NCBI RefSeq assembly: GCF_036365525.1
Contig: NC_090409.1
Span: 37,954,437-38,018,436, forward strand
Direction of reading: 5' to 3'
Length of the DNA stretch: 64,000 nt
Source of the DNA: Heterodontus francisci
Taxonomy: Eukaryota
Shown: piece after piece, positions 2,829 through 59,409 of the stretch
Layout: every line of letters starts with the position of its first letter
Numbering within the stretch: position 1 is the stretch's first letter
Translations under genes and position numbers: made by a program
Notes under the pieces: generated by a model
The model's database searches: none
What the model was told of the DNA's origin: nothing
The model's input: the letters and a program-made list of their open reading frames with translations, nothing else

Positions 2829-3154
2829 ATGGGGGCGGACAATCTGTTCATTGCTCTGGAGGTTGCACTTGCTATCAGTGTAATCAGCATTAACTTGCTG
2901 GTGTGCACAACTGTCTACTTACACCGGGAACTGAGGACGCTGACAAACTACCTGATCACCTGCCTAGCACTGGCCGATCTAAGTGTGGGGGCCCTGGCTG
3001 CACCCTGTTCCATCTTGCTCAGCCTGGACCTCTCCGTTTCTTTCTACGGTTGCCTTATGATTGCCTGTTGCCCGCTGGTCACCACCCAGTTCTCCGTCTT
3101 CGTGCTCCTGGCCATCGCGATCAATACCCACCTCAAAATCCGACAACCGAGCAG
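2829..3154 (+). CDS. Adenosine receptor-like coding exon 1 (TM1-TM3)
   Basis: ATG at 2829; donor AG|GTAAAC at 3154/3155. Confidence 0.88.
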
Positions 3155-13855: not shown

Positions 13856-13926
13856 ATGCCTGGTGTAACAGTGAAAGACGTGAATCAGCAGGAGTTTGTT
13901 CGAGCTCTTGGAGCTTTTCTAAAGAA
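13856..13926 (+). CDS. RPS19: RPS19 coding exon 1
   Basis: ctcag|ATG...AAG AA|gtatgt. Confidence 0.97.
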
Positions 13927-23844: not shown

Positions 23845-24965
23845 CTAAATCTTCGCAGACATCCCCACAATGACAGAACAAGTGTGAGCTTTCAGCTGAT
23901 AGATATATGAAAATCTCTCTCCACATTCAGTACATTTATACGGCCTCTCTCCGTTGTGGATCCGCTGGTGTCTCCGGAGGTGGTCTGACACTGTGAAACC
24001 CATTCCACATTCAGTACATTCATATGGCCTCTCTCCGGTGTGGATCCGCTGGTGTTTATGGAGGTGCCATGAAACTCTGAAACTCTTTCCGCATTCAATA
24101 CATTTATATGGTCTCTCTCCTGTGTGGATCCGCTGGTGTACATGGAGGTGCCCTGACGCTGTGAAGCTCTTCCCACATTCAGTACATTTATATGGTCTCT
24201 CTCCTGTGTGGATCCGCTGGTGTATATGGAGGTGCCCTGACACTGTGAAACTCTTCCCACATTCAGTACATTTATACGGCCTCTCTCCTGTATGGATCCG
24301 CTGATGTATATGGAGGCTCCCTGACACTGTAAAACTCTTTCCACATTCAGTACATTTATACGGCCTCTCTCCTGTGTGGATCCGCTGGTGGTTCTTGAGG
24401 CTCCTTAACACAGAGAAACACTTTCCACATTCAGTACATTTATATGGCCTCTCTCCTGTGTGGATCTGCTGGTGGTTCTTGAGGCTCCTTAACACAGAGA
24501 AACATTTTCCACATTCAGTACATTTATGTGGCGTCTCTCCTGTGTGGATCCACTTGTAGTTATGGAAGTTCTCTGTCTGTGTGAAACTCTTTCCACATTC
24601 AGTACATTTATATGGCCTCTCTCCTGTGTGGATCCACTTGTAGTTATGGAAGTTCTCTGTCTGTGTGAAATTCTTTGCACATTCAGTACATTTATACTGC
24701 CTCTCTCCCATGTGGATGTGCTGCCGTAGGTGATGATTACCTGATTTTATAAATTTCCTCTCCTGGACAGATTGTGTGAACGAACCCTGCTCATTTTTAT
24801 GTTGCAAAACATTTTTTTTCCTGGAAGGAAAAGATTGTCCTGCTGAAATTTGTCTACAGGATTCAGGATGTCTTCTGATGTGCTTCTGAAGAAAATCTGA
24901 AGTGGTAAATGCAACATTGCAATAAGGGCAAGGATGACACTCATCTCGACGCACCTGTTGCCTTG
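23845..24965 (-). CDS. PRDM9: PRDM9 last exon: post-SET finger + 10-unit C2H2 zinc-finger array
   Basis: ctccag|CA AGG CAA CAG GTG...; 84-bp repeats of CTECGKxF.....[13 protein letters not shown]; AATAAA (minus strand) at 23351-23356. Confidence 0.95.
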
Positions 24966-36900: not shown

Positions 36901-39900
36901 GCCAGTGGTTGACATCTAAAATGCACTGCCTGAGAGTGTGGTGGTGGCAGGTTCAATTGAGGCATGTAACTCACTGTGGCATGCTCATGAATTTGCTATC
37001 TTGAGAGAAATAAATTGAACCTTACAGGAGCTAATGGATTCCAAGTGTCATGATCAACATGTCAGAGACAAAATAGGCAATAAATGCTGGCCTAGCCAGT
37101 GACATCCATATCCCATGAATGAATAAAACAAAATTGACACGCCAGCAAGGGACAATGCAATAGAAGGATGTGCTTCAGAAGACCCTTTCCTATATTGAGA
37201 TCTCAGGGCGTGTCTTCCTTCTACCTTACCCTGCAATATATATTGTGAGGGTACATGGAAACAGTCAAGTTTCACAAACCCTGAAGCAAGGACAAGATTA
37301 CAGGACAAGCACATCACATACAATTAAAGTATAACGCAGACATGGTGGGCAAAAGACCTCGATAAAATCCTGTAGCGTTTTGCTGGATACAAATTTTCTC
37401 TTATGCCACTAATATCTCTACCACCAGTTACTGGGTTTTCAAGAGCCATGCCACCAACTGGAATTTGAAAGGCCCCTGTGGCAAGTACCAGAAGAACCAA
37501 CACAATCTTCCAACGGGTCACTCTGCAAGGGGAGTCCAAAGCTCCGGAAACTGCACCATCCTTGGACAGGACAGACATTATGACTTTTTCATATTCATTC
37601 ATGGGATGAGGACTTCGCTGGCAAACATTTATTGCGCATCCCAAATTGCTCTTGAGAAAATGGTGCTGAGCCTGTATAAGATTTGCCACGATAGGGAAAT
37701 GAGCATTGTTCATCTCAGAATTGTCCCAGGATTCTTGAGCATTTTGTTTTCTCAATAAGGCCATGTGAACTATGTCTTGTGTATAACTTGTTTATAACTC
37801 TTGTCCACTCATCACAGTTGATTTTGCCTCTGCTGAGAGAATCCACTACATCACGTGACTCACCCACAAGGTGCTGGTAGGAAAGAGTTAAGACAATGGA
37901 CACAAGGAGAGGTCAGGGGCTTTTCATGCAGCAAATTATCAGAACTCAGAATGCCCTCCCAGTAACAGTGCTGGTCGCAGAATCCATCATAATTTATCAA
38001 AGGGAAGTCAATAGCTCTTTCAGAAAACCAACACAAGTGTACTGGGCCAAATGGCTTCCACATTTGGAATGTACGGAGGCAAACAGCCAGTGAATGAATC
38101 CTGCTGTAATACAACATAGAGCAAAATTCAGGGATAACTATGGAGGATGAAGGCCATTTGATGCAATGTCATTCATCCATCCAGAAAGATTACAGTACCC
38201 CCAACACCTCATTGCTATATGCCATTATTGCTCAGTACACATCTCCACCATCCCTTGTTTATTATTTGCAGTGTGGCAATAGTAAAATACTTAGTAATAA
38301 CCCCATTCTGTTTAAGTTTCACACATGTAAGCCACATTCCCACTTGCACATAAGCAGAATCAATTGTTTTCAGTAATTGAATGAATGCAATGAAATGCAT
38401 TGTCTAAAATAGACAAGGGACAGGTATTTCCCATAATCAGGGGCCATTCGTTTACAATTACGGAAAGTCCCAATCTATTTTATTACAAGATTTCAGAATT
38501 TTCATCAGTTGATTGGGGATAATAATCAGTGCCAGTTTGTTGGCAAACACAAGGCTGCACTCCTCTCCTCCCACTATGCCATGTTGTACTGCTCCACAAA
38601 TGCACTGGCCTACCAAGGACTGTGTCATCATATCAACCCTCCCAATAAATTCTTCTTGCCCTGAGGAAATGGATATATTACTTTGCACATACACAGGTAA
38701 TCATCATCACAAAGTTCCCTTTCTTCAGCGTAAACTTTTCTCTCTCTTTTTCTCAAACTGTATCTTCTACTTTCAGTCTCTTTGGTTGTTTCTTCATTTG
38801 CTGACTCCAAAACCTTTCCAGTACAGACAACTGTGGAATATATCAAAAAGATCATGAACAAAAAGTGAACCAATTAATTGTAATATTATCTCTTGCAATG
38901 TTTGTTTTTGCTTGAACAGTAGATGCTGAGGTATTTTCACAATACTGCAGGACATTGCTTTCGTCTGTCCTGAATGACTTCTGTAGTGGTCACACCATCA
39001 ACATAAAGTATCTCTTCCTAATTGCAATAACCTCAGTTATTCTAATAGAATTACTTCAATTGAATCCTTTAATTTCTGGACAAATACCTTTATTGGTTTT
39101 ACTTTCACAAGCCAAGGTACTTGTTTCTCTGTTGATCTTTTTAACTGAAACTGTCTCTTCCATAACTGAGGGAGTGTCCTCAGTGAAGCCCCTGAAACCT
39201 TTATCTTTATCTTCTTCTGAATGGGACACAATCGGTGATGAGGCTTTTTGCTTCTGAAATGCAGAATATAAGAGTAAAACTGTACCTCGTGACTCCTCAA
39301 TTGGAGAATATTGCTCAAGGAATTATGTACAACTTAAAGCATTTATCTATGTTTCCTCTCTATTAGTTTTTAAAGGATATTTAATAAACAAAGGTAACCA
39401 ACTACCCAAGTGGGAAAATGCAGTAATTCCCCAAGATAATGCACGTTTTTCAGATCGTTCCAATATTTGATACTGTACTTCTGCTTTGAGTTTGCTGATC
39501 ACAGCAAATGTGTAAAAACCCATTAGAAATAATCTCAGCACCATTTTGCAAGGATTTCCACTGATTGCTAACGAGTCATCACGGGCAGTATTTTCTGCTC
39601 TCCCCCTGTGGCGAGTTTGGAGGTGGGGAGGCCATTTAATTGGCCCACGGACATCCTTCTTGTCCCACCACCAATTGAGGCCGTTAAAGAGCAATTAATG
39701 CTCAATTATGGGTCTCTTCCCATGGGAGCTGGTATTAACCCAGCGGCTGGTGGAGCACGACATGCAAACCAGTGCAGGATTGCTCGTGGACTCCCTGGGG
39801 GTGTGGGGGGGGGGGGTGCAGGTGGTGGGGGGGGGGGTGCGGGGTCCCTCATTCAAACACATTAATTGCCTGATCGACGGATCCGGCATTTCAAAGGAGG

Positions 39901-42900
39901 TAGCCTGCTGAGAGCCACTCTCCTGCCCTTGCTGCCAACTCCCCCTACATCCCTCCTCAGATTGGCTGGCAGCTTTAAGTGGGCAAAACATCCTGTCCCC
40001 TGAGTTCTGATCCTGGGAAAGGCTTGCTGATGGCCTCTCAAGAGCCTGATTGGCTCGTCCCTTGGCAGGCCTTCCCCAAAGGAGGTAACTCAGGTCTCTC
40101 ACCAGCTATCCAGCCGGCTGCTGAGACCCCCGTCGCCTCCATAAAATTAAAATCTGGAAACGTGTGTGTCTGTGTACAGTAACCATTTCCAACAATGAAG
40201 AGCCTAAAACATGAAGAACAGCCATTGAGCAAATGTCGACAAGGCTGCCCATTAATTCAGCGCAGATGAAGGCAGCATCTCTACTTGTTAATCAATGCCT
40301 TTAGAAAAATGAGAAGAGGAGGAGTTTCAACACGTTATTTACTACTTCACCTTTCGTCTTCCCACACCACGAATCATCTTGAAAAGACAGGCAATATTCA
40401 ATAGTTTCCTAAAACTAACATTGAATTCCACCTGAGGTATACAAGCATTGGTAACACAGATCTTCATTCTGTTGAACATTGAATTAGCTTTCCTGACTTT
40501 AGCACATACACTCCGCCAGCTGTGTTTCTGAAGACTGTACACAGGAATTTACAAGGCAAAAACAAAATTAGAGATAAGGAATTAAGTGTATGAATCTGTA
40601 CCTATCAGATATCACGCTTGCTTTTCCTGTAATCTCCCGGCTTTCCTGAAGGAATTGAAGTACGGTTCTATAGGCACTAATTATCCTCCACTGCCTCGTC
40701 CATGCGTCTACACAGAAAATATTGGAAGGCAACTCAAGTCTCAGGAGACTTGGGCTGATAAGTGGCAAGTAACATTCGTGCCACCCAAGTTCCGGGCAAC
40801 GATCATCTCCAACAAGAGAGAATCTAACCATCTCTCCTTGACATTTAATGGCATTACCATCCCCGAATTCCCCACCACCAACATCCTTGGAGGATTACCA
40901 TTGAACAGTAACTTAACTTGACCAGCCAAATAAATATTGAGGCTACAAGAGTAGGTCAGAGGCTGGGAATTCTCCGGTGCATAACTCATCTCCTGCCTTG
41001 CCAAACCCTGTCCACCATCTACAAGGCACAAGCCAGGAGTATAATGGAATACTCCCCACTTTCTTGGATGAGTGCAGCTTCATCAGCACTTAAGAAGCTC
41101 GACACCATCCAGGACAAAGGCAGCCCGCTTGATCGGCACCCCATCCACCACCTTCAACATTCACTCCCTTCGCCACCGACACACAGTGGCAGCAGTTACC
41201 ATATATAAGATGCACTGCAGCAACTCGCCAAGGCTTCTTCAACAGCACCTCCTAAACCCGCGATCTGGACAACCTAGAAGGACAAGGGCAGCAGTAACAT
41301 GGGATCACCACTACCTGCAATTACCCCTCCAAGTCACACATCATCCTGCCTTGGACCTATATCACCGTTCCTTCACTGTCGCTGGGTCAAAAACCTAGAA
41401 CATCCTCCGTCAAAGCATTGTGGGTGTACCTACAACAGATGGACTGCAGCAGTTCAAGAAGACAGTTCACCAGCACCTTCCCAAGGGCAATTAGGGATGG
41501 GCAACAAATGCTGGCCTTGCCAATGACACCCACATCTCACTGAAGAATAAAAAATAGGCACCAAAGCACAGATTTATCATAGTTCTTTCCAAGAGTACTC
41601 ACACTTTTCCAGAAAAGCTCAAAATGTAGCAATCCAGAGCAGGGACCCTAGTTACAGCCTGGCCACTTTGAGAACTTAGTGCTGCAGCAGTGACCAAATG
41701 GATTTGTCTTTCTGAACCAGTTAGATTCACACTATGGAGCCTCATGGGAAACATAAAAAGTTTAAGTCCAAATTCTGATCAACTTGTAAATATTTCAAGC
41801 TGCTGCTATTCACAGTTTTTGGGATGCTGATTGAGTATTTATGCACAAACAACATTAAGAAGAGTTCACATACAAAACCTCCAGCTCGTTACATTCAAAT
41901 AGGACAAGTAAGCAAGTAAGAAATATTTGTACTAATAAGACCAAGTTACCGGGGACCATATGCTGCAAATTAAAAACAAAAATGGATTGCTGATAGTTTG
42001 AAATAAAGGCAGAGAATGCTGGAGGTGTGTAGCTGGTTAATTTGCATCTCAAAGAGTAAGACTTGTTCAAATGCTAACATAAAAGCAAAATACTGCGGAT
42101 GCTGGAAATCTGAAAAAAAAACAAGAAATGCTGGATTCACTCAGCAGGTCTGGCAGCATCTGTGGAAAGAGAAGCAGAGTTAACGTTTCGGGTCAGTGAC
42201 CCTTCTTCAAAGAAGGGTCACTGACCCGAAACGTTAACTCTGCTTCTCAAATGCTAACAGGTCTGCCATGATTATCGAACAGATTGTTTCCAGCTTGTCT
42301 AATAAGAATTTCTGTTCCCACTGAATTACCTTTCTGGTGTTCTCTTTCTTAGTCTCCTTGGTATCTTCATTCATAAAGAGAGACTTAAAGAATCTCACCT
42401 CTTAAGCAAAAAGAAATATGTCAGTATTGATTGAGGTAATCTCAGATTTCAATTTATTTATGTTAACAGCATGACAATTCTAAAAATATCAAGTTTATTC
42501 AGGCCCAATCAAGAACCAATACATCATGTAGATTGTCACACTCCAAGAAGTGCAGCGATGGAAATACAGAACCGAACTGGAGATATAAAAAAATTGGAAC
42601 AATTTTAAAGAGACTAGTACATGTGCTGTCAACAAAATGGAGAACAAGACACATGGCCCTCAGCATCTTTTGCACTCAAATCCACATCAGTGTTTATTAA
42701 AACTGAAAACCAATTAAGCACCATCTGCATGGAAATGCAACAGATTGGCAGCACAGTGGTTAGCACCGCAGCCTCACATCTCCAGTGACCCAGGTTCAGT
42801 TCTGGGTACTGCCTGTGTGGAGTTTGCAAGTTCTCCCTGTAACTGCGTGGGTTTCTACCAGGTGCTCTGGTTTCCTCCCACAGCCAAAGACTTGCAGGTT

Positions 42901-45900
42901 GATAGGTAAATTGGCCATTATAAATTGCCCCTAGTATAGGTAGGTAGTAGGGGATGTGGTAGGAATGTAGGATTGGTATAAATGGGTGGTTGATGGTCAG
43001 CACAGACTTGGTGGGCCAAAGGGCCTGTTTCAGTGTTGTATCTCTAAAGAAAATAAATAAATCACAACTGGATGTGAGCTAAACTCAAACACAATAAGAC
43101 ATGACCTTTTGCAGATTTCTCATCTCTGAATAACCTCCATTACATTGGAGTGTGAACCAGCCTCATCACCTCAAAATGGGGCCATCATCAAGGCCATTAT
43201 ACAGCCATGAAGCCACATGGGCAAAACCAACCCTTGTAAAAATTCACCATAAAAGGTAATTGTTTTGAGGAACAAAGGGAGTCTTTTCAGGGCAGCACTA
43301 GAGACATCAGTCTGGTCTGTCCTCAGCTCTCACAGCACAATAACAAAAAAGCCATTTTGAATTCCAGCAAGGCTAAAAGAGAAAGATCATTTCCAGTCAA
43401 CACAGTTGAACCTTGCTGAGACAAGTCTATAAAGTTAGCTACAGAGGAAACAAGGAAGTATCTTTGCAAAAATGACTTCTCTACTGGTGACAACTGGCCT
43501 AAGACATCAGCACAATCTTCAACCCAAAGTGAATCACCAGAAGACTGCAATAGCCCAACGATCACCAGACACCCAGCAAACAGGTCTGCAATCTCAAAAA
43601 TTCACCTTCCGAAGGGGATCCCACAGGTTATTCTTGAAACAACAGACTTTGACAACCTGAACTTTGAACACCTCTTACTCTGTAGTTTTCTATCTATCTT
43701 CTCTTGAAAGTGCATGTGGTATGCTGGCGTGAGTGGTGTTGTGATCATTTCCAGATTTGTTAAAAAATAGTTATCTTTGTTATACCTACGAGAAAACCTG
43801 TCTATTTATTTGGCAAAAAAAAATACAAGGGGTTAAAATACTAGTAACAAAAAGACTTGCTGTGATCAGTTGGGAGATGAACGGTGGGAACAAGCCATGC
43901 CATCACCCACCTGGCCATAACAAGATAAAAGATAGAAAGGTAAATGTACACAAATATAAGGTAACATGTGATCATACAATTTAGTTACCTTTCCAGCTCT
44001 TCAAAACTTCAAAGTAACTGCCTAATTACAAAAATGATGTACTAGCCACTAGCCAAACTGGTTATAATCAGGTTTTTGAAAAGAAGTACTTTTAATATTG
44101 CAACAAAGGAAGTACATCCAATTTACGTGGGGGTTCTTGGCAGGACGTTTAGGCATTCAATCCTCATCTGAGTCACAAGAGACACACAGGGTGGGTGCCC
44201 CATGTACACCTTGAGATAAATGGCACATCAAGTCCTGCAAATATTAAAATGACCAGTCTAGCACAAGGAAGAAGCCCTGCTGCTGATACTATACTTCAAC
44301 TTGGTGCATAGAGGAGTACACTGTCTTTCTCTAGTTCCACTTCTCTCCACAGGTCACAACATATATTTAAATGTGTACTCAATTATCAATACAGCCAATT
44401 ATATCTTCTATTTTTTATTTCAGAATAAACTCTACCAAAGAGGTTTCTTTAAACAACAAAATTATCAACTTATTATAAAACAAGACATATTCAGTCAAGA
44501 TACAAAACATTAACACACAGATTGAAAGATGAAAGTTCCCTTCTACCTTAGCCCAACATACTCACACAGACATAAACACACACCAGTTAAAAAAAAAGAC
44601 ATGTTCTCTGCAGATCTCTTTAAAAAAGACAAAAAAGAATACTTTGGCCAAATACTTGTTAATTCTTGAAGGAAAAGGAGAAAATATGGAATGATATCAG
44701 TTGTCCTTTTATTCTGGTGTCCCAAATATGCGTAGACGGCTGTCACTGGGATCATTCTAGAGAAGTTGTTTTCAGGCAGTGTTGAGGATTAATGTGACAG
44801 GCTTTCTAGGAGAAATGCGGTATCGTGTTTCAGCTTTCACACACTGGATTCGCAGGGTTTCTCAGACAGGTGGAGAAAATTAGCCCAACATACTCACACA
44901 GGCCTCTCGCAGGCTGACTCCCAACTGACTCAAAACAGTATTCAAAATGAAACCAACTCCTGACCACCATAAATCTTGACATGTCACTTCTCTGTAAACA
45001 ACTCCCATAGTCAGAAGGCACCTACTGTTTACTTAGCTGAAGACATGTGACTTCCAGTGACCTTTAAATAAAAAGGCAAGCATCCTTGGAATCACTTCAG
45101 TCTCAAATGAAGCCATCTCCACAATTCTAAAACACGAGTCCTCAAATAAATATTCAAAAATGGAAGCACTTTCACAATAAAGTTCACTACTACAAACATC
45201 CAGGCCTACACCTTTGAAAAGACGTTATTCCTGAGATGATTGAACAGGTTTCTGTAAACCATGAACTCTTACATCACGTTCAACTTGAATTGAATCCTAG
45301 TCTTTTTCTCTCCATGCTTGTGTATGAATGTGCATGTGAATGAGTGAGTGGGTGAACAAATTCGGTTTTACTGTTTAAATAAAATTTAACCTTCCTTTTT
45401 TTAAAAGCTACAAGAAAACCTGTCATTGTTCTGTTTATTTGACCTTAAAAACACTCAGGAACTAACTCACCATTTTTAAAAAAACACTATTACAGTCAGT
45501 TGGGAGGTGAGAAGTCAAAGTTACCCACACCACTAACCACCTGTCCATAATATCATCTTTCCATCTCTTCAAAACTTCAAAGTAACTGTCTCCTGACAAA
45601 AACTATGTACTGGCTACTGGCCAAATTGGTTGAAATCAGGTTTTTAAAAAAAGTACTTTTAATATTTCAACAAAGAAAACATATCCAGTTTACGTGGTTG
45701 GTTTTTTGCAAGAGGCTTAGGCGTCCAATCCTCATTTGAGTCGGAAGAAATATAAACACGGGGTCGGTGCTCCCTGCTACACTTTGACATGAATGGTACA
45801 TCCAACCCTGTGAAAATTAAAATATTCCAATCACCTGCAGTTAATAATTGCCTGCATTTAGCTTGGCTTCATTTACTGATGTAAATTATCTGTTGAATCG

Positions 45901-48224
45901 AACCATTTTAGAATAATATCAGATAAAAGCAATGCAGAGGGTCAGGGGTTAGGGGAAAGTCCAAAGGAAGGAGCTTTACATTTCTGACAGCTGATGGTCA
46001 CTCTCAGGACCGAGGGAAAGGAAGGTCATTGATGGCATCTGAGATGCAGAGTTCACCCGGCATGGACTCCATGGGCTGAATGGCCTCTTTCTGTACTGTA
46101 AATGACCCTATGACCTCCTGCAATCCTAAATTTACTATTTTTATTCTTCATTTAGTATTTCATGGTAGTCAATCTGTGGTTTTGCAAAGATAGTGAGGGA
46201 ACGCCACACAGGCACAATAGGAATTGTTCTTATGACACAAAAAAATATACGTGTGATAGTCAGGTGAGATCAGGACCATCTATGGTGTTCTCCACCTCAG
46301 ACAGGATTTTTTGCTTCAGCGGACCTGACACACACAAGGAGCGCTTATTGGGAAATTGTGAATCCTCAGTCTGTGATTTCACAACTGTTACATTTATATT
46401 CAGCGAATTGCAGGCTGGGGTTGCTGAATTTCCAGATATTCATTCCTAATGTGTGCTAGAAGTGGTGAAATGGAATATCCCGGCCATAATGTCAAACTAC
46501 ATGAGGAGAATATCTACTTGAGTGTAAATTGGAAGTATTGTATGCGAGTATGAACCAGAGAGGAAGAAATGTTGCAAGCAAGAAAATAACAGATTTGGAA
46601 CAAACCTATTGCAAGCAGGGTTTTGTAGTTTTGCTGCAGCTTCTTACAGTGGAATTCTACCCATTCGCTTAGTTCCGCCCATTCAGCATTGGAAAGATAC
46701 ATGGCAATCTCTTTAAGCTTCTCTAGAATCTGGAGAAATAAAATGAATGTCATTACTGATACATTTAGGTATTAGATCTGTAATCTTCAAAAGCTCGCAC
46801 TCTGCTGTGCTGTCAGATTTGCCAATCTTTTAAAAATTATCCTCTCCACTACTTGAATGGGCTGGCACAACCAGACATTATTGGCAGCCAATAATATCGT
46901 CGCACCATGATGTTGCAACGTCATGAAGGAAATTGTCTCCCAGGACCTTCTACAATTCGGGTTGGTGCGAATATGTTCCAGGGGATGCCTGGAAAGGCAA
47001 AAGATGCACTGCAGCAACTCCCTTCTTAACAGCACTGTGGGAGCACCTTCATCACACAGACTGCAGCAGTTCAAGAAGGGGGCACGTCCCCACCTTCTCA
47101 AGGGCAATTAGGGACGGGCAATTACTACTGGCTTACACAGCAAGGCCCACACTCATGAACTAAAATAAAAAGAACTAAATTGCTCAAAATGCTCCCACGC
47201 ACCATCCCGTTTCTAAATTATTCTTCCTCTCATTATCCACATACACTCAACATCATGCTGAAGTTTGGTCTGATACTTTCAAGGAACGCAGGAATAGGCC
47301 ATTGAGCAAGCTCGGTCATGTAGTTCACTTTGGCAGGGTCTACCCTTTGAATCTCATATCACTTAATATCCTTACAACCAATTTATTTATCCCTTTTAAA
47401 ACACCTGAATTAAATCTGCATCAACAGCCTCCTGTGGTAGCACGTTTTACAATCCCACAAAATTTAGCCTTAAGAAATTTTTTCCTGGGTTAACTTTCCA
47501 ACACCTTTTCTATTTCTAATAGATGACCCAATTACAGACCTCCCAATTAGAAATATATAAATCCAGGATATCATCCGTCTTGTCAATTTTGTTTTATTCA
47601 GGATGTGGATAATTCGGTCAGGACCATCCTTTATGTCCATCCATAATTGCCTTCAAAAGGGGGTGGACCTTCACTGTAAACTTCGATCAGATCATTCCTC
47701 ATCTGTAGGGAAGTTTGCTCAGTCTCTGATCTCAGCCTAAAGTCCTCAATGAAATAGAAAAGGCAAACCACAGCAGTACTTTAAATTAAATTGTAACTGC
47801 AAGACCTGAATCAAGCTGGTAAAAGAGAAGTTCAGAATTAACGTCACAGAAAGAAATGATTACCTGGATCGGGTAGTACAAACAAAAAAAACAAATATTA
47901 AATAATTTAAACAGATAGATATTGTAATAAAGACAACTTGCGTTTCTACTGGAAGGATCAGTTAGAGGGCTCAAATGGTCTCACTGATCAATATTAATAA
48001 TCATGATCCCATCAAATCATTGGGGAGCATACTCACTCCCTACTGACAATATTGTGACTGACCAGCTGAATCTTTCCTATCTCAAGTTGTGGAAAATAAA
48101 CTGACACAGCATTTCTTTTCTGGTTTCACCTTCAAATCTCCCATGATCTTACCTCGGATTTCCTCTGCTCAGACATAGCCTTTCCCTCTCCAGTATTTGT
48201 GCTGTCACTCTTAGTTTTACCCAT
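23845..48224 (-). CDS. PRDM9: Histone-lysine N-methyltransferase PRDM9, complete architecture: complement(join(23845..24965,27653..27843,28624..28691,33949..34220,38693..38830,39088..39253,42330..42400,45694..45807,46606..46729,48153..48224)), ~778 aa
   Basis: The ten exons join in frame (2337 nt) with GT-AG sites. Domains: KRAB ([17 protein letters not shown]...NYKTLLAIG), [14 protein letters not shown] ([14 protein letters not shown]...DDDYL), zinc knuckle ([17 protein letters not shown]), PR/SET ([44 protein letters not shown]), post-SET finger and tandem C2H2 array. The 124-, 272- and 68-bp exons match human PRDM9 exon sizes as I recall them. The two low-complexity middle exons and the first exon are less certain. 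Confidence 0.92.
25485..25680. repeat. ~59-60-bp tandem repeat x3 in the PRDM9 last intron
   Basis: caatgtctcagtgtgggtgg.gctggaaccctgtttcaatggaggt repeated. Confidence 0.85.
26480..27580 (-). mobile_element. Old CR1 fragment in the PRDM9 last intron
   Basis: Degenerate CR1 RT/3' motifs ([20 protein letters not shown]). Confidence 0.75.
27653..27843 (-). CDS. PRDM9: PRDM9 PR/SET exon (FVNCAR...[10 protein letters not shown])
   Basis: ttccag|A TTT GTT AAC TGT...AAA T|gtaagg. Confidence 0.96.
28624..28691 (-). CDS. PRDM9: PRDM9 68-bp PR/SET exon ([23 protein letters not shown])
   Basis: ctgcag|ATC AGT...ATG AG|gtaagg. Confidence 0.96.
28757..30505 (+). mobile_element. Relatively young 5'-truncated CR1 LINE (RT ORF 28788-30137), antisense in a PRDM9 intron
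   Basis: 449-aa RT frame ([30 protein letters not shown]); the FADD motif is deleted; in-frame stop at 30135-30137. Confidence 0.95.
31190..33430 (-). mobile_element. CR1 LINE fragment interrupted by an RTE element
   Basis: CR1 RT pieces on both sides of 32110-33004 are colinear. Confidence 0.88.
32122..32992 (-). mobile_element. RTE/BovB-like LINE 3' fragment with 12-bp target-site duplication
   Basis: 254-aa ORF FTYLG...[21 protein letters not shown]...[20 protein letters not shown], ending in a C..C...H zinc motif; TSD catacctcctat at 32110-32121 and 32993-33004. Confidence 0.92.
33949..34220 (-). CDS. PRDM9: PRDM9 272-bp exon (zinc knuckle + PR/SET N-half)
   Basis: gatag|TT TGT GAA GAC TGC...TGG GTG|gtaagt. 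Confidence 0.96.
34380..34710 (+). mobile_element. Penelope-like terminal remnant with hammerhead core
   Basis: agttCTGATGAaggatcattgacctGAAAagTTaact followed by the ccacaaatgctgccagacc tail shared with 15000-15345, 36560-36700 and 42080-42246. Confidence 0.55.
35200..36965 (+). mobile_element. CR1 fragment interrupted by a solo LTR (35714-36541) and a Penelope-like remnant (36560-36710)
   Basis: CR1 motifs resume at ~36715 after the insertions. Confidence 0.75.
38693..38830 (-). CDS. PRDM9: PRDM9 SSXRD exon
   Basis: ccacag|TT GTC TGT...[26 protein letters not shown]|gtatgt. Confidence 0.93.
39088..39253 (-). CDS. PRDM9: PRDM9 linker exon ([16 protein letters not shown]...)
   Basis: tttcag|AAG CAA...AAA G|gtattt; open, and phase 0->1 as required by the flanking exons. 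Confidence 0.7.
40740..41550 (+). mobile_element. LINE 3' fragment (same family as 3797-4175)
   Basis: WADKWQVTF...[20 protein letters not shown] motifs. Confidence 0.8.
42080..42246. mobile_element. Short Penelope-like insertion with a perfect 39-bp inverted repeat and 13-bp TSD
   Basis: Arms at 42169-42207 and 42210-42248; TSD tcaaatgctaaca at 42067-42079 and 42247-42259. Confidence 0.75.
42330..42400 (-). CDS. PRDM9: PRDM9 short linker exon ([23 protein letters not shown])
   Basis: cttaag|AG GTG...AGA AAG|gtaatt; phase 1->0 fits. Confidence 0.7.
42534..43922 (+). mobile_element. LTR-like element (TGTCAC...ATAACA) with a nested V-SINE (42747-43060)
   Basis: The start matches the LTR-like sequences at 60541 and 63352; TG...CA termini. 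Confidence 0.65.
44127..44234 (-). pseudogene. Degenerate duplicate of the PRDM9 post-KRAB exon
   Basis: Aligns to 45694-45807 with intact ag/gt ends but has indels and in-frame TGA codons. Confidence 0.85.
45694..45807 (-). CDS. PRDM9: PRDM9 post-KRAB exon ([38 protein letters not shown])
   Basis: Resembles human PRDM9 GL...PAFM...DSDEEWTP; phase 1->1. Confidence 0.9.
46606..46729 (-). CDS. PRDM9: PRDM9 KRAB exon (124 bp)
   Basis: ctccag|ATT CTA GAG AAG...GCA ATA G|gtttgt. Confidence 0.92.
48153..48224 (-). CDS. PRDM9: Probable PRDM9 first coding exon ([24 protein letters not shown])
   Basis: gggATGG Kozak context, 24 codons, strong phase-0 donor GAG|gtaaga. Confidence 0.7.
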
Positions 48225-49619: not shown

Positions 49620-52600
49620 CTGGCCCGAACTTTCACGAGGGTTAAAATAGGCTGAGTGTGTATGTATGTGTGTGAGTGCGTGGAATGTGGCAACTTGCAC
49701 ACTGCCATGTGGGAATATGATGTTCTTGCGATAACGAAGACCTGGCACAAAGAATGGCAGGACTGGGCATTAAATATTCCTGGATGCAGGGTGTCCTGGA
49801 AAGAAAGGAAGTGGGGGAAGAGGTGGCAGTATTGATTGAGGAGCACACTGCAGTGCTGGAGAGAGAGGATGTCCCAGAGGGGTCAAGGACAGGATATATT
49901 TGGCTAGAGCTGAGGAACCAAAAAGGGGCAATTACATTGCTCTGTGTAGTTTATAAGCCAACAACTAGTGGGAACGATGTAGAGGAAAACATTTGCAAAG
50001 AAAATTATAGAGAGGTGCAAGAATTATATTGTAGTTACAATGGGGGTCTGTAATTATTCGAATATAGACTGGGATAGTAATAGTGTAAAGAGCAGAGTGG
50101 GGCAAGAGTTCTTAGAGTATGTTCAGGAAAATTTTCTACAACAGTATATTTCCAGTCTAATGAAGATGGAGGTGGTTCCAGACCTGGGTCTTGGGAATAA
50201 GGTGGGCCAAGTGGATCAAGTATCAGTAGGGGAACATTTGGGGGACAGTGATCATTGTATCATAATGTTTAGATTGGCTATGGAAAAGGACAAGCAGCCT
50301 TACAGCTCCAGCAACCCGGGTTCAATTCTGGACACTGCCTGTGTGGAGTTTGCAAGTTCTCCCTGTGACCGCGTGGGTTTCCACCGGGTGCTCCGGTTTC
50401 CTCCCACAGCCAAAGACTTGCAGGTTGATAGGTAAATTGGCCATTATAAACTGCCCCTCACGTAGGTAGGTGGTAGGAGAATTGAGGGAAGGTGGGGATG
50501 TGGTAGGGAATATGGGATTAATGTGGGATTAGTATAAATGGGTGGTTGATGGTCGGCACAGACTTGGTGGGCCGAAGGGCCTGTTTCAGTACTGTATCTC
50601 TAAAATAAAATAAAAAATCCAGAGTAAGAATAATTAACTGGGGGAAAACCAAGCTAATGAGGTAAGAATGGATCTGGCCCAGATAAATCGGAAAAAAGAT
50701 TGGCAGGCAAAATGGTAACTGAAAAATGGGCTGCCTTTGAAGAAAAGATAGTTCGGGCAGAGTCAAGGCACATTCCCACGAAGGGGAAATGTAGGACTAA
50801 CAAATCCAGAGCTCCCTAGATGACAAAAGAGATAGAGATTAAGATGAAGAGGAAAAAGTGTGCTTATTCTAGATGTCAGATGGATAATACAACAGGGAAC
50901 CAGGCTGGATATACAAGGTTCAGATGGCAAGTGAAAAAGTAAATAAGAATCAATGAGAGTGTAAGAAAAGAGACTGGCAGCTAACATAAAAGGGAATCCA
51001 AAAGTCTTCCATTGGAGTTAAAAATAGTAAAAGGGTGGTGAAAGGAGGAGTGGAGCCGATTAGGGTCCGAAAAGCATGGAGGCAGAGATGTTAAATGAAT
51101 ATTTTGCATCTGTCTTTACCATGGAAGAAGATCATGATGAAAGAGGAGGTAATTCAGACATTTGAAGGGGTTAAAATTGATAAGGAGGAGGTATTGGATA
51201 GGCTGCCTTTATTAAAGTTGCTGAGGCACCAGGACCGGATGAGATACATCCAAGTGAGTGAAGTGATAATGGACATTGCGGAGACACTGGCCATAATTTT
51301 CCAGTCTTCCTTAGACTCAGGGATGGTGCCAGAAGACTGGAGAGTGACAAATGTTACACCCTTGTTCAAAAAAGTATGTAAAGATAAGCCCAGCAACTAC
51401 AGCCCAGTCAGTTTAACCTCAGTGGTAGGGAAGCTTCTTGAAATAATAATTTGGGACAAAATTAATAGTTACTTGGGCGAATGCAGGTTAATTGTGGAAA
51501 GCCAGCACGGAGTTGTTAAGGGCGAATGGTTTTTAATGAAATTGCTGGAGTTTTTTGATGAGGTAACAGAGAGGGTTGATGAGGATAATGCTGTTGCTGT
51601 GATGGACATAGTCTTCCAAAAAGCACTTGATAAAGTACCACCCAACAGACTCGTGAGCAAAGTTATAGTTCATGTAGTATAAGGGACAGTAGCCACATGA
51701 ATATGAAATTGGCTGAGTGACAGGAAACAGAGAGTACTGGTTAATGGATGTTTTTCGGACTGGAGGGAGGTTTGTGGTGGAGTTCCCCAGGAGTTAGTGT
51801 TAGGAACCTTACTCTTCCTGATCTATGTTAATTACCTTGAACCAGGTCCACAGAGTACAATTTCAAAATTTACAGATGATATAAAACTGGGAAGCATTGG
51901 GAAAAGTGAGGAGGAGAGTGTAGAACTTCAAAAGGACATTGGTCGGTGGAATGGGCGCGCAAGTGGCAGATAAATTTGATGCAGAGAAGTGTGAAGTGAT
52001 TCATTGTGTTAGGATAAATGCAGAGAGACAATATAAAATAAAGGGTACAATCCTAAAGGGGTGCAGATGTGCATAAATCATTGAAGGTGGCAGGACAGGT
52101 TGAGAGCACGGTTAATAAAGCATACAGTATCCTGGCCTTTATTAATAAGGGAATAGAGTACAAGAGCAAGGAATTTATGTTAAACCTGTATTAACCACTG
52201 GTTTGGCCTCAACTGGAGTATTGTGTCCAGTTCTGGGAGCCACACTTTAGTAAAGATGTGAAGCCATTAGATAGAGTGCAGGAAAGATTCACGAGAATGG
52301 TTCCAGGGATGAGGAACTTTAGTTACAGATGGGGAGAAACTGTTTCCACTGGTAGGAGGGTTGTTATCCAGAAGACACAGATAATTTACAAAAATATCAG
52401 AGAAGGCGAGAAGTCTTTTTACGCAGAGAGTTATGATGTGAGGTGCACTGCCTTAAAGGCTGGTGGAAGCAATTTCAATAATAACTTTGAAGACTGAGTT
52501 GGATATTTGCTTGAAAAGAAAGAAATTGTAGAGCTGTGGGGAGGAGTGGTAGTAATAGGATAGCTCTTCCAAGAGCTGGCACAGCCTTCTCCTGTGCTGA
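49620..52600 (+). mobile_element. Degraded near-full CR1 ORF2 with a nested V-SINE (50297-50615)
   Basis: Endonuclease (EHLGDSDH) through RT ([29 protein letters not shown]) to the 3' end, with many frameshifts. Confidence 0.88.
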
Positions 52601-54988
52601 ATGATTCTTTGCTAATTGATTGTGCGACTTTTGTGTTGTGACAGGGTAAGGAGGGCACATGAAAGCTTGAGGTGCAGCTAAGCTTTGTATATGATTCAAT
52701 GTATCCCTATCAGGACAGTAGGCGAGGCATTTCAGTTTTAGTACACTTGGACTGGGGAAAGGGTGAATTCAGCAAGTGTTCCCTTTCCTGATCCTGCTAC
52801 AGTGACTCTTTGGTGTATCAATTATCTTCGCTTGTTGTCACTGTCGTCTCTGAGATAAAGGTTGTATCCACAGGAGAATGGGAACTGAGGTCAGGAACTG
52901 CTCCCTTAAAAAATCATCCTGTTACTTTTCAACTTAAGAAAGAACAGCACTCCTATAAGTGCTTTTGATGTGTTGGTGGCGTTCCACAGCTCTTTACAGC
53001 CAATGAATTACATTTCGAAGTGCAATCACTGATATACGTAGGCAAATAGGACAGCACAGACTGCACACAGCAAGTTCCAACAACAGCAAAGAGATAATTG
53101 GTCTGATAATTGGTGGTGTTGGTTGGTGGATAAATGTTTTCCAATACAACAGGAAATCTCCTTTCCCTTCTTACTGTTGTGCCATGCGATTGTAGTCTAA
53201 ATTTTTTCCCAAAAATATTTTATTCATAAAAGTTTGTTTAAAAAAATAATACAACAGTTCAGAACAGTTCAAATTTGACATTTCAGAAAGTACAATCGTG
53301 ATCAGATTCCTTCGATACAGAACATGAGTTGCCTCACAACTCTTGCCATTCCATTTTATATGCAATGTACATTTGCATTGCAGAGCAAAAACATATTTTG
53401 GTGCCTACAGCCAGAGAGGTTTTACACAGGTTCCAGCCCCATAGTATACTATGGCAGGAGGGCCTTGCACAGTGAGCCTTTGCAACAGCTACCCTAAGCT
53501 TTAGTGCATCCCTCAGCACGTAGACCTGGATCTATCTTAAACAGACAAGGATACAGATTAGCCTGGTTTGAAAGATGGCACCTCTGACAGTGCAGCACGG
53601 CAATGTCAGCCTGGATTGCCTACACGACTCTCTGGAGTGGCACATGAACACGAGAATGCGAAGTCCTGAGCCAAGGCTGACAGAGGTTATCATACTTTGC
53701 GTCACAAAACACAATAATACTGCCACCCTGCACATTTGTTAGGTTTTTGCATATTGCCAACATTTTCTAACATCTATCTGCCCGTCAAGGCTGTGTTACG
53801 CACCCCCTCCCTCCCCCGCCATCCCTACTGAGGTATTTCCCTCATATCTCTTTTCAGGTAGTGTTACCCCCAATCACCACTGAGAGATTGTTCACCCACA
53901 CCTCCATTGACGCAGGGTAACAACCCCACTCCCACTGAGTCTTTGTTACACTCACAACTCCACTGAGTCAGAATTACAGCCCCACCTACACTATATCATT
54001 GTTCCTCTCCATACCTCCATTGATATAGTATTACACCCCCACCAACACTGAGCCATTTTCCCCCCCCTGCCTCCATTGAGACAGTGTTACACTCCTACCC
54101 ACACGAAGACATTGTTTCCCCCACGCCTCCATTGAGGCGATGTTACATTCCCCACCCCCCCCACCCCACACCTTCATTGAGACAGTGTTGCACCCCCTGT
54201 ACCCCAGCTGAAGCAAGTTTGCCCCAGTACCTCACTGAGGTAGTGTATCTTCCCACACCAGTGATTGAGGCTGTTCCCTGAAACTCCGAGACAGCTTATC
54301 CTGCCCACGAAGGTATTATTCTCCCACTGCTGTCAAGGCACTCTCCCATTTCCATCTCTTTCATTCTCTCTTCTATACATTCGACCAGTCATTCCCCTGT
54401 TCTCTGACCTTAATTAACTCGAGACTGCCCAATGTCAGGGAAAATCAACCACATAAAGTTATATATAATAAAGTTATATCCATTTTTATGGGTTTTATAA
54501 ATATATATGCTTTTGTGAATCTTCATTTTATTACAAAACTTACTTGGAGTAGCTCAAGCTGAATAATTGAGCATTTATGAAGAAATAATGAGGCTCATTG
54601 CACTGCTAAGGTAACTCCCAGACAGGTCCCCCACTCTTTTATTCAACAGATGCTGTTTAATTTCCTCTCCCCTGTTTTAACAAAGCTGGTTTTTACACTG
54701 GTTTATAACAATTCCTGAAAGGGTGATGATGTGTCCATTGATCCTTGGAGGAGTTCAGAGACTGAATCCATGAACCTTGAAACATTTGTTAGTACTGTTT
54801 TAAATATGCAATGCCCTATTGATGAGTTCTGCCTCCTCATCTCACCTCTTTTACCAGAGGAGGGTTTCAATTCACAATATGAACATCCTAAGAGCCCAGT
54901 TTAATACTGAAATAACTACAAATTGTACTTCCAATAGAAAATTCTAGATGTTTCATTACTCTGACAATTTTCCTTCTTCCATCTCCAG

Positions 54989-56076
54989 CAAATCAACAAA
55001 TGCATCAAGATGAGTGCCATCCTTGCCCTCATTGCAATGTTGCATTTATCACGTAAGATTTCCTTCAGAATCACATCAGAAGACATCCTGAATCCTGTGG
55101 ACAAAGTTCAGCAGGACAATCTTCATCCTCCAGGAAAAAGTTCTTTTGCAATTCAAAAATGAGCGGCGTTCGTTCACACAATCTGTCCAGCGGATAAAAT
55201 TTATAAAATCAGGTGATCACTACCTACGCCAGCGGATCCACACAAGAGAGAGGCCGTATAAATGTACTGAATGTGGAAAGAGTTTCACACAGACAGGGCA
55301 CCTCCAGAAACATCTGCGGATCCACACAGGAGTGAGGCCATATAAATGTACTGAATGTGAAAAGAGTTTCGCAGTATCAGGGAACCTCCAGAAACACCAG
55401 CGGATCCACACAGGAGAGAGGCCGTATAGATGTACTGAATGTGGAAAGAATTTCTCAGTGTCAGGCAGCCTCAATAATCACCAGTGGATCCACACAGGAG
55501 AGAGGCCGTATAAATGTACTGAATGTGGAAAGAGTTTCACACAGACAGGGCACCTCCAGAAACATCTGCGGATCCACACAGGAGTGTGGCCCTATAAATG
55601 TACTGAATGTGAAAGGTGTTTCACAATGTCATGGCACCTCCAGAGCAACCAGCAGATCCACACAAGAGAGAGGCTGTATGAATGTACTGAATGTGGAAAG
55701 AGTTTCTCAGTGTCTTGGAGCCTCCATGGACACCACTGGATTCACACAGGAGAGAGGCCGTATGAATGTACTGAATGTGGAAAGAGTTTCTCAGTGTCAG
55801 GGAGCCTCCATAATCACAAGCGAATCCACAAAGGAGAGAGGCTGTATCTTATGTACTGAATATGTAAAGAGCTTCACAAAATCAGGGAGCCTCCACAGAC
55901 ACCAGCAGATCCAGACAGGAGAGAGGCCATATAAATGTACTCAATGTGGAGAGAGTTTTTCTTATATCTATCAGCTGAAAGTTTGCATTTGCTTTGAAAC
56001 CTTTCATCATTGTGGGGAAGTTCTCAAGGATTCAATCGCTTTCAAAGTCCACATGAGGAAATGTTTTGAAACATAA
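54989..56076 (+). pseudogene. Orphan PRDM9-type zinc-finger exon (9 tandem units), pseudogenised
   Basis: Acceptor ctccag|CA retained; in-frame TAA at 55054-55056; frameshifts near 55145 and 55850; I found no PR/SET exons upstream on +. Confidence 0.9.
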
Positions 56077-57071
56077 TGAAGAGAATAGTAACCAATTCAT
56101 AATTTCACTCTGCTTGAATATTTCATTCTATTTGAATAGCCTTGAATAGTTATCTCAAACATTGCTATTATTTAGACTTTTAACCTTTCACTCTTTATGA
56201 TATTTTTGTGTGGATAATGATGGAGTATAAGGGTAAATTCCAGGATTCCTCATGTCCCGTGTGGGTTGGAGATTTGGGGCTATGTTGTTGTCGCCCAGTG
56301 TCTGATCCACTCACCCTGAAATTGTATCTTCGGACTGGCATTTCAAAATATTCCTTCTGATACAAACTGCAGAATGTGTTTAATCTCTGTGTCGCAGGCC
56401 CTTTGTTCTGATGGTGAAAGGCTGCTGGGATGAATGCTGTCTTGATGCAGTCAGGTTGCGTCTGCATCAGTAAAGGTGCCATAATGTATGGTGTTAATAA
56501 ATATAGTGACTGAAACTACAACCACTTTGATGCCGCAAGTGACGAAGATGATTCTGTCCTGTGGACTCACTACTCCAGTTACTTTTCTCAAACACCTGCT
56601 CCCCAAGATACCTTTCATTGTTTGGCATGAGATTTCTTCAACAGATGATCAGTAAAATGCTGCTGTTAGAGATTTCAAAGCTGAAGGAAGTGTCGACAAA
56701 AGTTCAAGCACAAGCTGGATTTGAAAATTGAAAAGTTGAATGTATTCCAATGTGTAATTAACTTGATGCAGGCTAGTCATGCTGAAATGTGCTTTAAGTT
56801 GTATGAATCTGTATTGTATTTAAGAATTTGCAAACTGATCTGTGTCTACATTGTCCAAGTAAAATCTGCGCTGATGTTCAACATTATTGGAATGTTATTA
56901 AACAAGAAAATTGTGGTCTGATTGTCATTGAGCAGTTTTTTAAAAAAATGCTCATATATTTTAGCCTCTATCTGGTCATCGATAGCTTCTGATGGCATAA
57001 GATTGTAAGTCTGAGCCTGTTTTAAAGTGACGAAACCGTGTGTAATACAACAACAGGAAAGGATAAACCAT

Positions 57072-58426
57072 AGAGTCAGAGAGCCACTTATGGCACAGAA
57101 GGAGGCCATTCGGTCCATTGAGTCCATGCCGACTCTCCATGGAGCTATGCAGTCCGTCTCACTCCTGGCCGCTTCCCCATAGCCCTGCAAGTCTCTGTCT
57201 CTGAGGTGGCTGTCCGACTTGCTCTTGAAGACATTGATAATCTTCGGTTCCACCACCCATGTGGTTGGCGAGTAAAAAAGTGCTTCCTTATATTCCCCCT
57301 GAATCCTTTGCCCAAAACTTTCAATCTGTGTCCCCTTGCCTTTGTGTCATTTGTTAATGGGAACAGTATTTCCTTGTCTAACGTTTCTAAGGCTGTCATA
57401 ATATTGTATACTTCTACTAAATCTCACCTCAATTTCCTTTGTTCAAAGGAGAACAAAACCAGCTATTCCAATCTTAGCTTTCAACGAAAATCCTCCAGCC
57501 CTGGAACCATTCTGGTAAATTTCCTCTGCACCCTCTCAAGGCCCCTCATATCCTTCCTGAATTATGGTGAGTATAATAATCAAGTTGGGGTGTAACCAGA
57601 GCTTTATAAAGGTTCAGCATAACTTCCTTGCTTCTATACCTCTATTTGTGAAGCCCAAGACCCCATATGCTTTACTCACCACTCTTTCAATCTGTCCTGC
57701 CATCTTCATGTACATGCATCCCTCTGCTCCTGCACACTCTTTGGAAATGTGCCATTATGTATATATTGTTTCTCCCTATTCCTTCTACCTGAATACATCA
57801 CCTCACACTTGTCGGTATTAAATTCCATCTTCTACCTGTCTGCCCATTCCAGTAGCCCGTGTCCTCTTGCAAGCAATTCGTATCATCCTCACTATTTGCC
57901 ACACCTCCAAGTTTTGCGCCTTCAGCAAATTTTGAGATTCTACTCCTTATTCCAAAATCCAAGTCATTTTTTATATAGCAAAGAAAAGTAGTGGCCCCAG
58001 CACTGACCTTTGGGGAACACCACTGGCTACCATCCTCCAGTCTGAAAAACAACCATTTAATACAACTCACTGTTCTCTGTCCTCAAATCAATCTTTTATC
58101 CAATTGGTCACTGACTCTCCTATTCCATGAGTCTTAATTTTGTTAATCAGTCTTTAATTTGGTACTTTGTCAAATTATTTCTTAAAATCCATATTGCCAA
58201 CATCCACTGCATTCCCTGCATCAAGAATCTCTGTTACTTCATCAAAACAATCAGTTAGATCGGTCAAGCACAATCTGTCTTTTACAAGTCCATGTTGGAT
58301 ATTCTTAATTAATTCAAACCCCTCTAAGTTTGTGTTGATATTTTCCTTAATTATTGTTTCAAAAACCTTGCCCATCACTAGTGTTTAACTGGCCTGTTGT
58401 TGCTAGGATTGTCCTTACACCCTTTG
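57072..58426 (-). mobile_element. CR1 LINE inserted into the duplicated 3' flank
   Basis: CR1 RT motifs on the minus strand; homology to the PRDM9 flank stops at ccat (57068-57071) and resumes at ccat (58427-58430). Confidence 0.88.
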
Positions 58427-59409
58427 CCATCTGGATAAATTCGGAAAGATCAGTGCAACTCATGGGCTTCTGATGTAATTTTAAACTAAAAGTGAGATCT
58501 GAGTGAATGATTTAGGTCAGGCATTCGACTCACTGCTGTAAGTTTGCGAATACAATCAAAGTCAGCAGTTGGCATCAGTGGTCAAACCTGGGTCCAGGAA
58601 CACCACTCCTTAAATACCGACAGTGCTGAGTGAGTGGAAGGTGTAAGCATTAGAGCCCAGAAGAATCAAATGCCACCAGCACAAAATCAACACTGTAACC
58701 CAAGCTCGGAAATTCCCATATGCGATAGGTGATTTTTCATGCCAAATAAATGCTGAACAAAATTCAAAGGAACAGTGAATGTTTCACTCTGTTCCAATTT
58801 GCATACACCTCACCCCAAGTAACATTGGCTGGAAGTTTGAGAAATCCATTATCAAAATCCTGCTGGCCATCTACCATCTTTGTTGTTGGAGAAGAGAAAA
58901 ACAAATGAAGAGCAGCTGAGTAGAAAACAAAACATGGAAGTCTGAAACAAAAACAGAAAATTCTGGAAATACAAAGCTGCCCAGTCGACAACTGTACGTA
59001 GAAATAATAGGTAAATTGCTTAAATTTTCCTTTGTCACACCTGATGTGTTAACAGACTGACTGGAAGGCTAAATACTGGCAACATGAAATAAATTTGATG
59101 GGGTGGAAGCCAGTGAATTTTACAACCACCTTATTAATGTATTGTCAATTTATCATTGTGCTCAGCTCTCCACATGTATACAAAGGATTTTTCTCATCTC
59201 ATCTCCTGATCTAGATTGGCCCTTTACCCATTAACCCCAGACCAGTTTAAGTTAGTAAATGTGTATGAGAACATGGAGTTGGGATAGGATCTGGCACATC
59301 AGTGATGCCACTACAGCAGATTAGCCAGCTGAGTGTTAAGAATAGCCATTTGGGAAAGGTATTGAAGGATTTCCAGAACTTGAGGAGCACTAACCCAGTC
59401 ATGAATCAG

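Follow-up and report, generated by a model that had tools for sequence, protein, structure and literature searches.

In the published sections considered here, salmonid PRDM9-alpha is described as tandem a and b copies that are blurred by ectopic conversion and accompanied by copies consisting of the finger exon only (PMC11703093), and PRDM7 and other disrupted PRDM9 paralogs, several per genome, are described from ruminants, the horse and primates (PMC4874674, PMC6714232). The corresponding parts of a study on cnidarians depict a birth-and-death history of Prdm9, with many truncated paralogs, some of them old and some in tandem on one scaffold, of which usually one full-length copy lasts (bioRxiv 10.64898/2026.09.07.749791), and recent PRDM9 duplications in cartilaginous fish are at least mentioned (PMC5519329). 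Here, we describe a PRDM9 cluster in the shark Heterodontus francisci (assembly GCF_036365525.1, contig NC_090409.1). The window, i.e., the whole stretch of 64,000 nucleotides that was analysed (positions 37,954,437 to 38,018,436 of the forward strand), contains a full-length PRDM9 paralog, gene A, and an inverted copy lacking the front end of the gene, cassette C; a second full-length gene, B, follows past the window end. A literature search of mostly open-access coverage yielded no description of a PRDM9 gene receiving fingers from a paralog, nor any work on this shark cluster.

Cassette C is a broken, 3'-only PRDM9 copy situated between two full copies, and we consider it probable that it is a neutrally decaying remnant that swaps patches with both of them by ectopic conversion, for the most part as the recipient. 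The three copies, the lesions of C, three conversion tracts outside the fingers and a neutral-like ratio of changes in the finger backbones constitute the established part of this explanation. As delimited by blastn against A and B, C extends over positions 52326..57070 on the plus strand and comprises the 3' part of the last intron, the finger exon and the 3' flank; homology resumes at 58,427-58,852 beyond an insertion at 57,071-58,426 that resembles a long interspersed nuclear element (LINE). In self-blastn, these two segments match 22,242-26,774 with 67-87% identity in head-to-head orientation with 25.5 kb between the repeats, in agreement with the first-pass annotation of the window, which had described an inverted 3'-only PRDM9 copy about 25 kb from its partner. 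The 84-bp arrays are located at 23,915-24,717 (gene A) and 55,229-55,958 (cassette C). That annotation had included the last intron in the copied part, which holds for some 1.8 kb at its end but not for the whole intron of ~2.7 kb. It had also found no SET exons for the cassette, and tblastn detected neither KRAB nor SET exons on the plus strand between the first exon of gene A and the cassette.

The last exon of C (54989..56076, plus strand) follows an acceptor AG at 54,987-88 and is interrupted by a TAA stop codon at 55,054-56, exactly where a stop had been announced. A 1-bp deletion in an A-run at 55,135-39 causes a first frameshift, about 10 bp away from the place predicted for it (55145), and an extra base at 55,849/50 causes a second, as foreseen near 55850. 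The tail conserved in sharks is present in shifted frame and ends with TAA at 56,074-76. Units C1-C8 and a terminal degenerate unit occupy 55263..55935 (plus strand); C1-C7 share a single open frame as claimed earlier, and all helices that had been listed for the two arrays of the window were read correctly. Three zinc ligands have been lost, i.e., the first His in C5 and both the second Cys and the second His in C8. C1 and C4 have 89 identical bases in common, and the first in-frame ATG of the finger frame, 55,626, lies within C5. A canonical PRDM9 is marked by KRAB, SSXRD and SET exons that lead into an open finger exon, a combination absent here; C has kept the zinc-finger (ZF) exon and lost KRAB, SSXRD and SET, which places it among ZF-exon-only remnants. 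At its 5' breakpoint (52326..52330, plus strand), two LINE remnants, which we take to be of CR1 type, are joined out of register at a shared word of five bases, which is likely what a deletion or partial duplication left behind. A repeat insertion at ~53,197-53,540 is specific to the cassette, and the cassette-matching contigs of sequencing run X5 start inside it, at 53,350. In addition, a minisatellite with a period of 56-60 bp resides in the last intron of all three copies (53,878-54,211 in C, 25,481-25,674 in A) and has apparently been homogenised separately in each.

The full-length partner most relevant to C lies outside the window. A search of the genome (G000) with the first SET exon resulted in two matches above 90%, one in A and the other 14 kb past the window end, both with complete exon sets, while the remaining five matches reached 39-46% identity only. 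These five distant PR/SET-like exons (L003-L007) are found on contigs C14 and C41, three of them within ~175 kb on C14. When the intron end and exon start of C served as the query, three places were recovered, namely C itself, a 92% identical copy downstream and A at 83%. By tblastn, the fetched neighbourhood of 244 kb contains two 10-exon PRDM9 genes, A on the minus and B on the plus strand, with C between them and oriented as B. Gene B (window-equivalent positions 67,699-86,335, plus strand; exon 1 at G000:C39:38022135; loci L008-L010) starts ~10 kb downstream of C, and B and C form direct repeats 30 kb apart. The first-pass annotation, which treated C as a copy of A alone, had missed this complete gene, although over 54,480-55,230 cassette C is 92% identical to B versus 83% to A.

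Gene B encodes an intact KRAB domain (31.5 bits, E=1.4e-7; Pfam cut-off 20.4) and a PR domain (E=1.7e-50) with three catalytic tyrosine motifs that also occur in A and presumably correspond to Y276/Y341/Y357. SSXRD scores are below the cut-off of 23 in both genes (15.9 bits in B, 14.7 in A), and weak SSXRD scores are noted for the whale shark, too, in the part of that survey considered here (PMC5519329). The last exon of B is open through seven fingers that differ at a single, silent backbone site (backbone distance 0.8%), and it keeps the tail conserved in other sharks. The share of amino-acid diversity at the DNA-contact positions -1, 3 and 6 amounts to 0.64, calculated with the statistic of PMC5519329 (section 25) with terminal units left out; all shares given here are absolute values rather than ranks relative to other zinc-finger genes. 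Because of its intact KRAB domain, homogenised array and conserved tail, B is likely the hotspot-directing copy, a role assigned here from sequence features, and the earlier comparison of C with A therefore used the wrong partner. For specialists this means that the shark likely possesses a canonical, fast-evolving PRDM9 that is cut off before the fingers in the database model. The closest database proteins are shark PRDM9s, the best of them 99% identical and labelled Heterodontus francisci. The model matching the exons of B (P0003) stops before the finger array, whereas the genomic last exon is open (L010:1331-2335, window-equivalent 85,331-86,335); B may accordingly be wrongly counted among PRDM9 genes without fingers, or there may be a splice form that lacks them.

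Gene A (23848..48224, minus strand) is a 10-exon paralog with a divergent KRAB, a SET domain, nine heterogeneous fingers, two of which lack the first His, and a frameshifted tail. Its KRAB exon (46605..46729, minus strand) is of a divergent type found also in basking shark and sawshark proteins and remains below the Pfam threshold (13.9 bits, E=0.041, cut-off 20.4). The diversity share of its array is 0.25 at positions -1, 3 and 6, or 0.35 when position 2 is included, with a backbone distance of 12.9%; for the eight fingers of C the share at -1, 3 and 6 is 24%. Judged by its KRAB domain and the state of its array, which is not homogenised, A, which the first-pass annotation had called active and taken as the recipient of cassette fingers, is not the canonical gene and lacks the marks of the hotspot-directing copy. 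The exons of A and B differ by 27% in KRAB and by only 0.5% in the last SET exon. In trees, the SET domains of A and B pair together (86/94) while the KRAB of A, on a long branch, groups with the divergent KRABs of basking shark and sawshark (99/97), which argues for long concerted evolution within the cluster. Possibly, A belongs to a second PRDM9 lineage that is old and conserved in sharks and whose SET has been homogenised within species; such a divergent-KRAB lineage, apparently common to distant sharks, would be of interest to specialists. The KRAB relatives of A are a basking-shark fragment (P0063) and a KRAB located internally in a gene model from sawshark (P0068). Several PRDM9 copies or SET-less pieces were seen in sawshark, skate and basking shark (P0068-P0070, P0073, P0010, P0011, P0014, P0063), in skate and basking shark mostly on contigs of a single length per species, and partial copies seem to be common in sharks and rays.

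Exchange among the three copies was assessed at 649 three-way polymorphic sites outside the arrays with 10,000 permutations. Each pair yielded one significant tract (permutation p<=2e-4), all three outside the fingers. The A-C tract (52962..53145, plus strand) contains 3 differences in 176 columns and a run of 102 identical bases (permutation p=1e-4), compared with 43 differences in 410 columns in its neighbourhood. The B-C tract (54705..55215, plus strand; permutation p<=2e-4) covers the intron end and exon start with 11 differences in 481 columns. In the last intron, A and B share 146 identical bases (26564..26709, minus strand; C-equivalent 52,394-52,532, 0 differences in 133 columns), and they are identical over a further 177 bases across the last SET exon (27,624-27,800). 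Divergence is 16-20% in the 3' flank for every pair of copies, 9-20% in non-finger DNA as a whole and 9-13% between the inverted repeats of A and C. The copies are thus old, conversion among them is real, and C has traded sequence with PRDM9 copies, the inverted A among them. Since the A-B tract is free of differences, exchange in the cluster is recent. Overall, the cluster looks old and subject to concerted evolution in which C takes part. C may descend from a duplicate whose front end disappeared at the LINE-LINE join, and meiotic double-strand-break repair between copies 25-30 kb apart would overwrite patches of C with B and A sequence. Copying from unit to unit appears to continue inside the array, as the bases common to C1 and C4 suggest, and such refreshing, intra-array copying and an earlier life as a gene could together have kept the 84-bp register.

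Within the exon part of the B-C tract, five assigned substitutions and one deletion are all C-specific and none is B-specific by three-way assignment. With fragment D on contig C18 as a fourth reference, the tail groups C with A by eight sites versus four and one, so that the B-like tract in C looks, albeit weakly, like a later overlay. Fragment D itself is a ~655-bp PRDM9 piece inside a LINE-like element (L029, G000:C18 ~73,728,790-73,729,450, minus strand) with 1.5 fingers including a WAGSLHI helix, the tail and 3' flank, and is likely a captured piece of transcript that preserves an older finger type. A further candidate for transfer from B to C is located at 55220..55245 (plus strand). Contigs from runs X5 and X7 carry C letters at the sites listed for 54,776-55,165, and B letters at each of the seven diagnostic sites listed for 55,220-55,245. 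The letters of the assembly partly match A in the latter interval, so that the B letters look like intruders. These hybrid contigs probably stem from another haplotype of C into which a B tract has been copied; otherwise they are chimeras of the assembly graph. Nothing points to transfer from C into B in the one B allele compared. Block distances were also tried as indicators of direction and revealed none, and homolog searches with the N-terminus of A and the linker of B found no protein of a close congener by which changes could be polarised.

The finger arrays were compared in a tree of 24 units based on the first 79 of the 84 bases, with the terminal units A10, C9 and B8 omitted. Intermixing in such a tree had been proposed as a sign of conversion, and indeed the units do not separate by locus; on the other hand, 13 of the 20 inner branches are open and the labels are still more clustered than in shuffles (0/200), so that the tree neither proves nor excludes intermixing. 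The expectation that fingers would be more alike than flanks failed, as A and C units are 14.1% apart at the nearest and 18% on average, i.e., within the range of non-finger DNA; the distance from C units to the nearest B unit is 11.7%. Among 24 distinct backbone changes in C, six are silent and 18 replacement, in keeping with a neutral expectation of 20-27% silent, and 21 changes in A divide into nine silent and 12 replacement. The finger backbones of C thus appear to change like neutral DNA under no constraint. Not one of the 24, the silent six included, occurs in any unit of the single assembled B allele, and nine are found in A where 6.1 would be expected (P=0.044), which hints weakly at kinship or exchange between A and C in the past. 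The earlier argument that the fingers are built from shared parts was rejected as a mark of exchange because, with the exception of the helix end LQK, the parts recur among 138 fingers taken from 20 further shark and ray proteins; the B1 helix, for instance, is identical in 7/7 positions in skate proteins. Likewise, the stop-free frame was dismissed as a sign of preservation, given that seven stop-free units persisted in 9-22% of simulations with 30-50 substitutions.

Several points weigh against a remnant that decays neutrally and mainly receives. The switch from C to B letters in the hybrid contigs sits in a block of 54 bp common to B and C, which exceeds the 31-letter index words, so that a graph chimera is possible; the sequencing runs of this species derive from one sample, and three sequences without orthologs cannot fix direction. 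LQK ends three of eight C helices and two of seven B helices as compared to none of nine in A and none of the 138 fingers from other sharks and rays, and has plausibly moved between B and C in either direction. C2 and B4 are identical across 52 bases. Finally, C1-C7 contain no indels where 5.6-6.2 are expected at the flank rate (P(0)=0.002-0.004; P(<=1)=0.015-0.024), and the array is therefore better kept than plain decay predicts. The flank count would, however, include changes from any phase in which C was still a gene, and slippage may be easier in flank DNA.

Alternatively, C could serve as a donor, as the first-pass annotation had suggested for the gene now termed A, with the target redirected to B. 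C, and perhaps A, would preserve old finger modules, and short conversions would carry these into the array of B and thereby shift hotspot specificity faster than point mutation. We consider this rather unlikely, and regard as similarly doubtful the broader notion of a slow finger library, in which the retired arrays C and A occasionally return modules such as LQK to B by ongoing conversion, and hotspot specificities are recycled across loci rather than created within a single array only. In favor of a donor role, exchange links all three copies, LQK is confined to B and C within the set examined, A4-A5 share 73 identical bases with B in addition to the run common to C2 and B4, each helix module of B that spans several bases can be matched in A or C, and indels are scarce in the C array. 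Against it stand the lack of any C backbone change in B, the unconstrained backbones of C, the age and wide distribution of the helix parts and the fact that the sole candidate polymorphic tract points into C. Moreover, B units differ among themselves by only 0-8 of 79 bases, so that shuffling inside B suffices to explain its array. Of the conversion proposed originally, exchange with A and B outside the fingers is thus retained, while a role of C as finger donor is unsupported. Transfer into B, if true, would provide the hotspot-turnover model with a new source of PRDM9 alleles, and the arrays carry enough private differences for such transfer to be tested directly.

It is also conceivable, but less probable still, that exchange has ended, with C dead, all tracts historical and the hybrid contigs being graph chimeras. 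The B-C tract has already accumulated its 11 differences, the contig junction falls into the shared 54-bp block, and contigs from DNA runs likewise collapse the B and C paths there. On the other hand, the switch recurs in two runs that were assembled separately, each time at the full depth of the contig (64.3 of 64.3 and 13.8 of 13.8), and the A-B tract without differences speaks for recent exchange in the cluster.

The runs also bear on the description of the cassette as silent, which is doubtful. No substitutions separate X5 contigs from C over 53,350-53,795, 53,823-54,146 and 55,769-57,118, or X7 from C over 55,769-57,117; together, contigs of the two runs cover most of 53,350-57,118 letter for letter. 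Both runs contain a GT-AG joint on the minus strand in the 3' flank of B and loose ends that map to distant exons, which makes it likely that they are RNA runs (the RNA label of X5-X8 is a guess) and that C is transcribed on one strand or the other. The frameshift at 55,849 is likely polymorphic, as the insertion is missing from an X5 contig and present in X1 and X7. Gaps in coverage were not used as evidence; they affect the 5' part and end of the last exon of B and C 52,701-52,867 in X5 and X7, and run X9 (organism B) offers almost no cover on the unique parts of C. A spliced antisense transcript runs across B in X5 and X7, and X9 has a comparable joint (L009-L010; window-equivalent 79,732-79,761, 86,561-86,734, 86,848-86,927 and 87,391 onward, minus strand). 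Transcription could in itself explain the retention of C, be it within an antisense or non-coding RNA or as a short finger-only product, which would be consistent with the substitution-free contigs, the spliced antisense transcript across the equivalent flank of B and the X5 contig devoid of the insertion. We nevertheless give this little credence, because the finger frame offers no ATG before C5, replacement changes have accumulated at the neutral rate, and the contigs carry neither strand nor level.

A switch by inversion, in which a crossover in the shared intron flips ~26.8-52.3 kb and places the first nine exons of A onto the finger exon of C, is geometrically possible. The inverted repeats have indeed exchanged a tract, and C resembles A in the distant part of the intron and B close to the exon, a pattern that an old crossover might have produced. 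We judge such a switch very improbable, since its product would combine the sub-threshold KRAB of A with a stop ahead of the finger array and the repeats are 9-13% diverged. No flipped allele was seen, in data that could not have revealed one. The idea that inverted orientation safeguards the gene during conversion does not extend to B, the direct repeat of C; by geometry, a crossover between the two would delete the first nine exons of B. That C is the tail of a misassembled gene can practically be dismissed: although none of the listed contigs bridges the junction at 52,326, the 244-kb neighbourhood is free of N, G000 yielded no additional PRDM9 SET exon, and DNA-run contigs match C-specific sequence with no differences across up to 995 bp, so that C is not an invention of the assembly.

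Elsewhere in the window, two exon-like open frames at 2,742-3,155 and 7,048-7,833 (plus strand) resemble parts of an adenosine-receptor-like G protein-coupled receptor. An exon at ~13,880-13,954 (plus strand), which bears resemblance to ribosomal protein S19, is preceded by a 2-kb minisatellite of 29-bp units (10,815-12,870).

With regard to known systems, chicken immunoglobulin (Ig) V pseudogenes and trypanosome variant surface glycoprotein (VSG) genes combine many donors, one-way transfer into an expressed gene and dedicated machinery. The shark locus resembles them in that a partial copy close to a presumably expressed gene exchanges sequence with it. It differs in that a single remnant is present, the tracts spare the variable region and B shows no donor-private change. 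Donor tracts as in Ig V or VSG genes were not encountered, with 0/24 changes of C in one assembled B allele, and instead of a library of many donors, at least a single cassette in the cluster and a single 655-bp piece elsewhere, on contig C18, were counted. As far as the sections considered extend, disrupted mammalian paralogs share with C the preserved 84-bp units and disruptive mutations in the finger exon (PMC4874674, PMC6714232); the bovine ones, unlike C, reside on other chromosomes than the main gene, and those sections map no conversion tracts with PRDM9. In cnidarians, according to the parts consulted, several full-length copies coexist (bioRxiv 10.64898/2026.09.07.749791), while in the shark B alone has both an intact KRAB and a homogenised array. 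The salmonid type is similar in its ZF-exon-only remnants, a full-length copy in the genome and neighbouring copies subject to ectopic conversion, and that account, in the sections considered, proposes no donor role (PMC11703093). In contrast to the salmonid case as described there, the shark tracts are mapped to the base and the remnant lies between an inverted and a direct partner. The cluster is thus a well-resolved shark example of the known birth, death and ectopic conversion of PRDM9.

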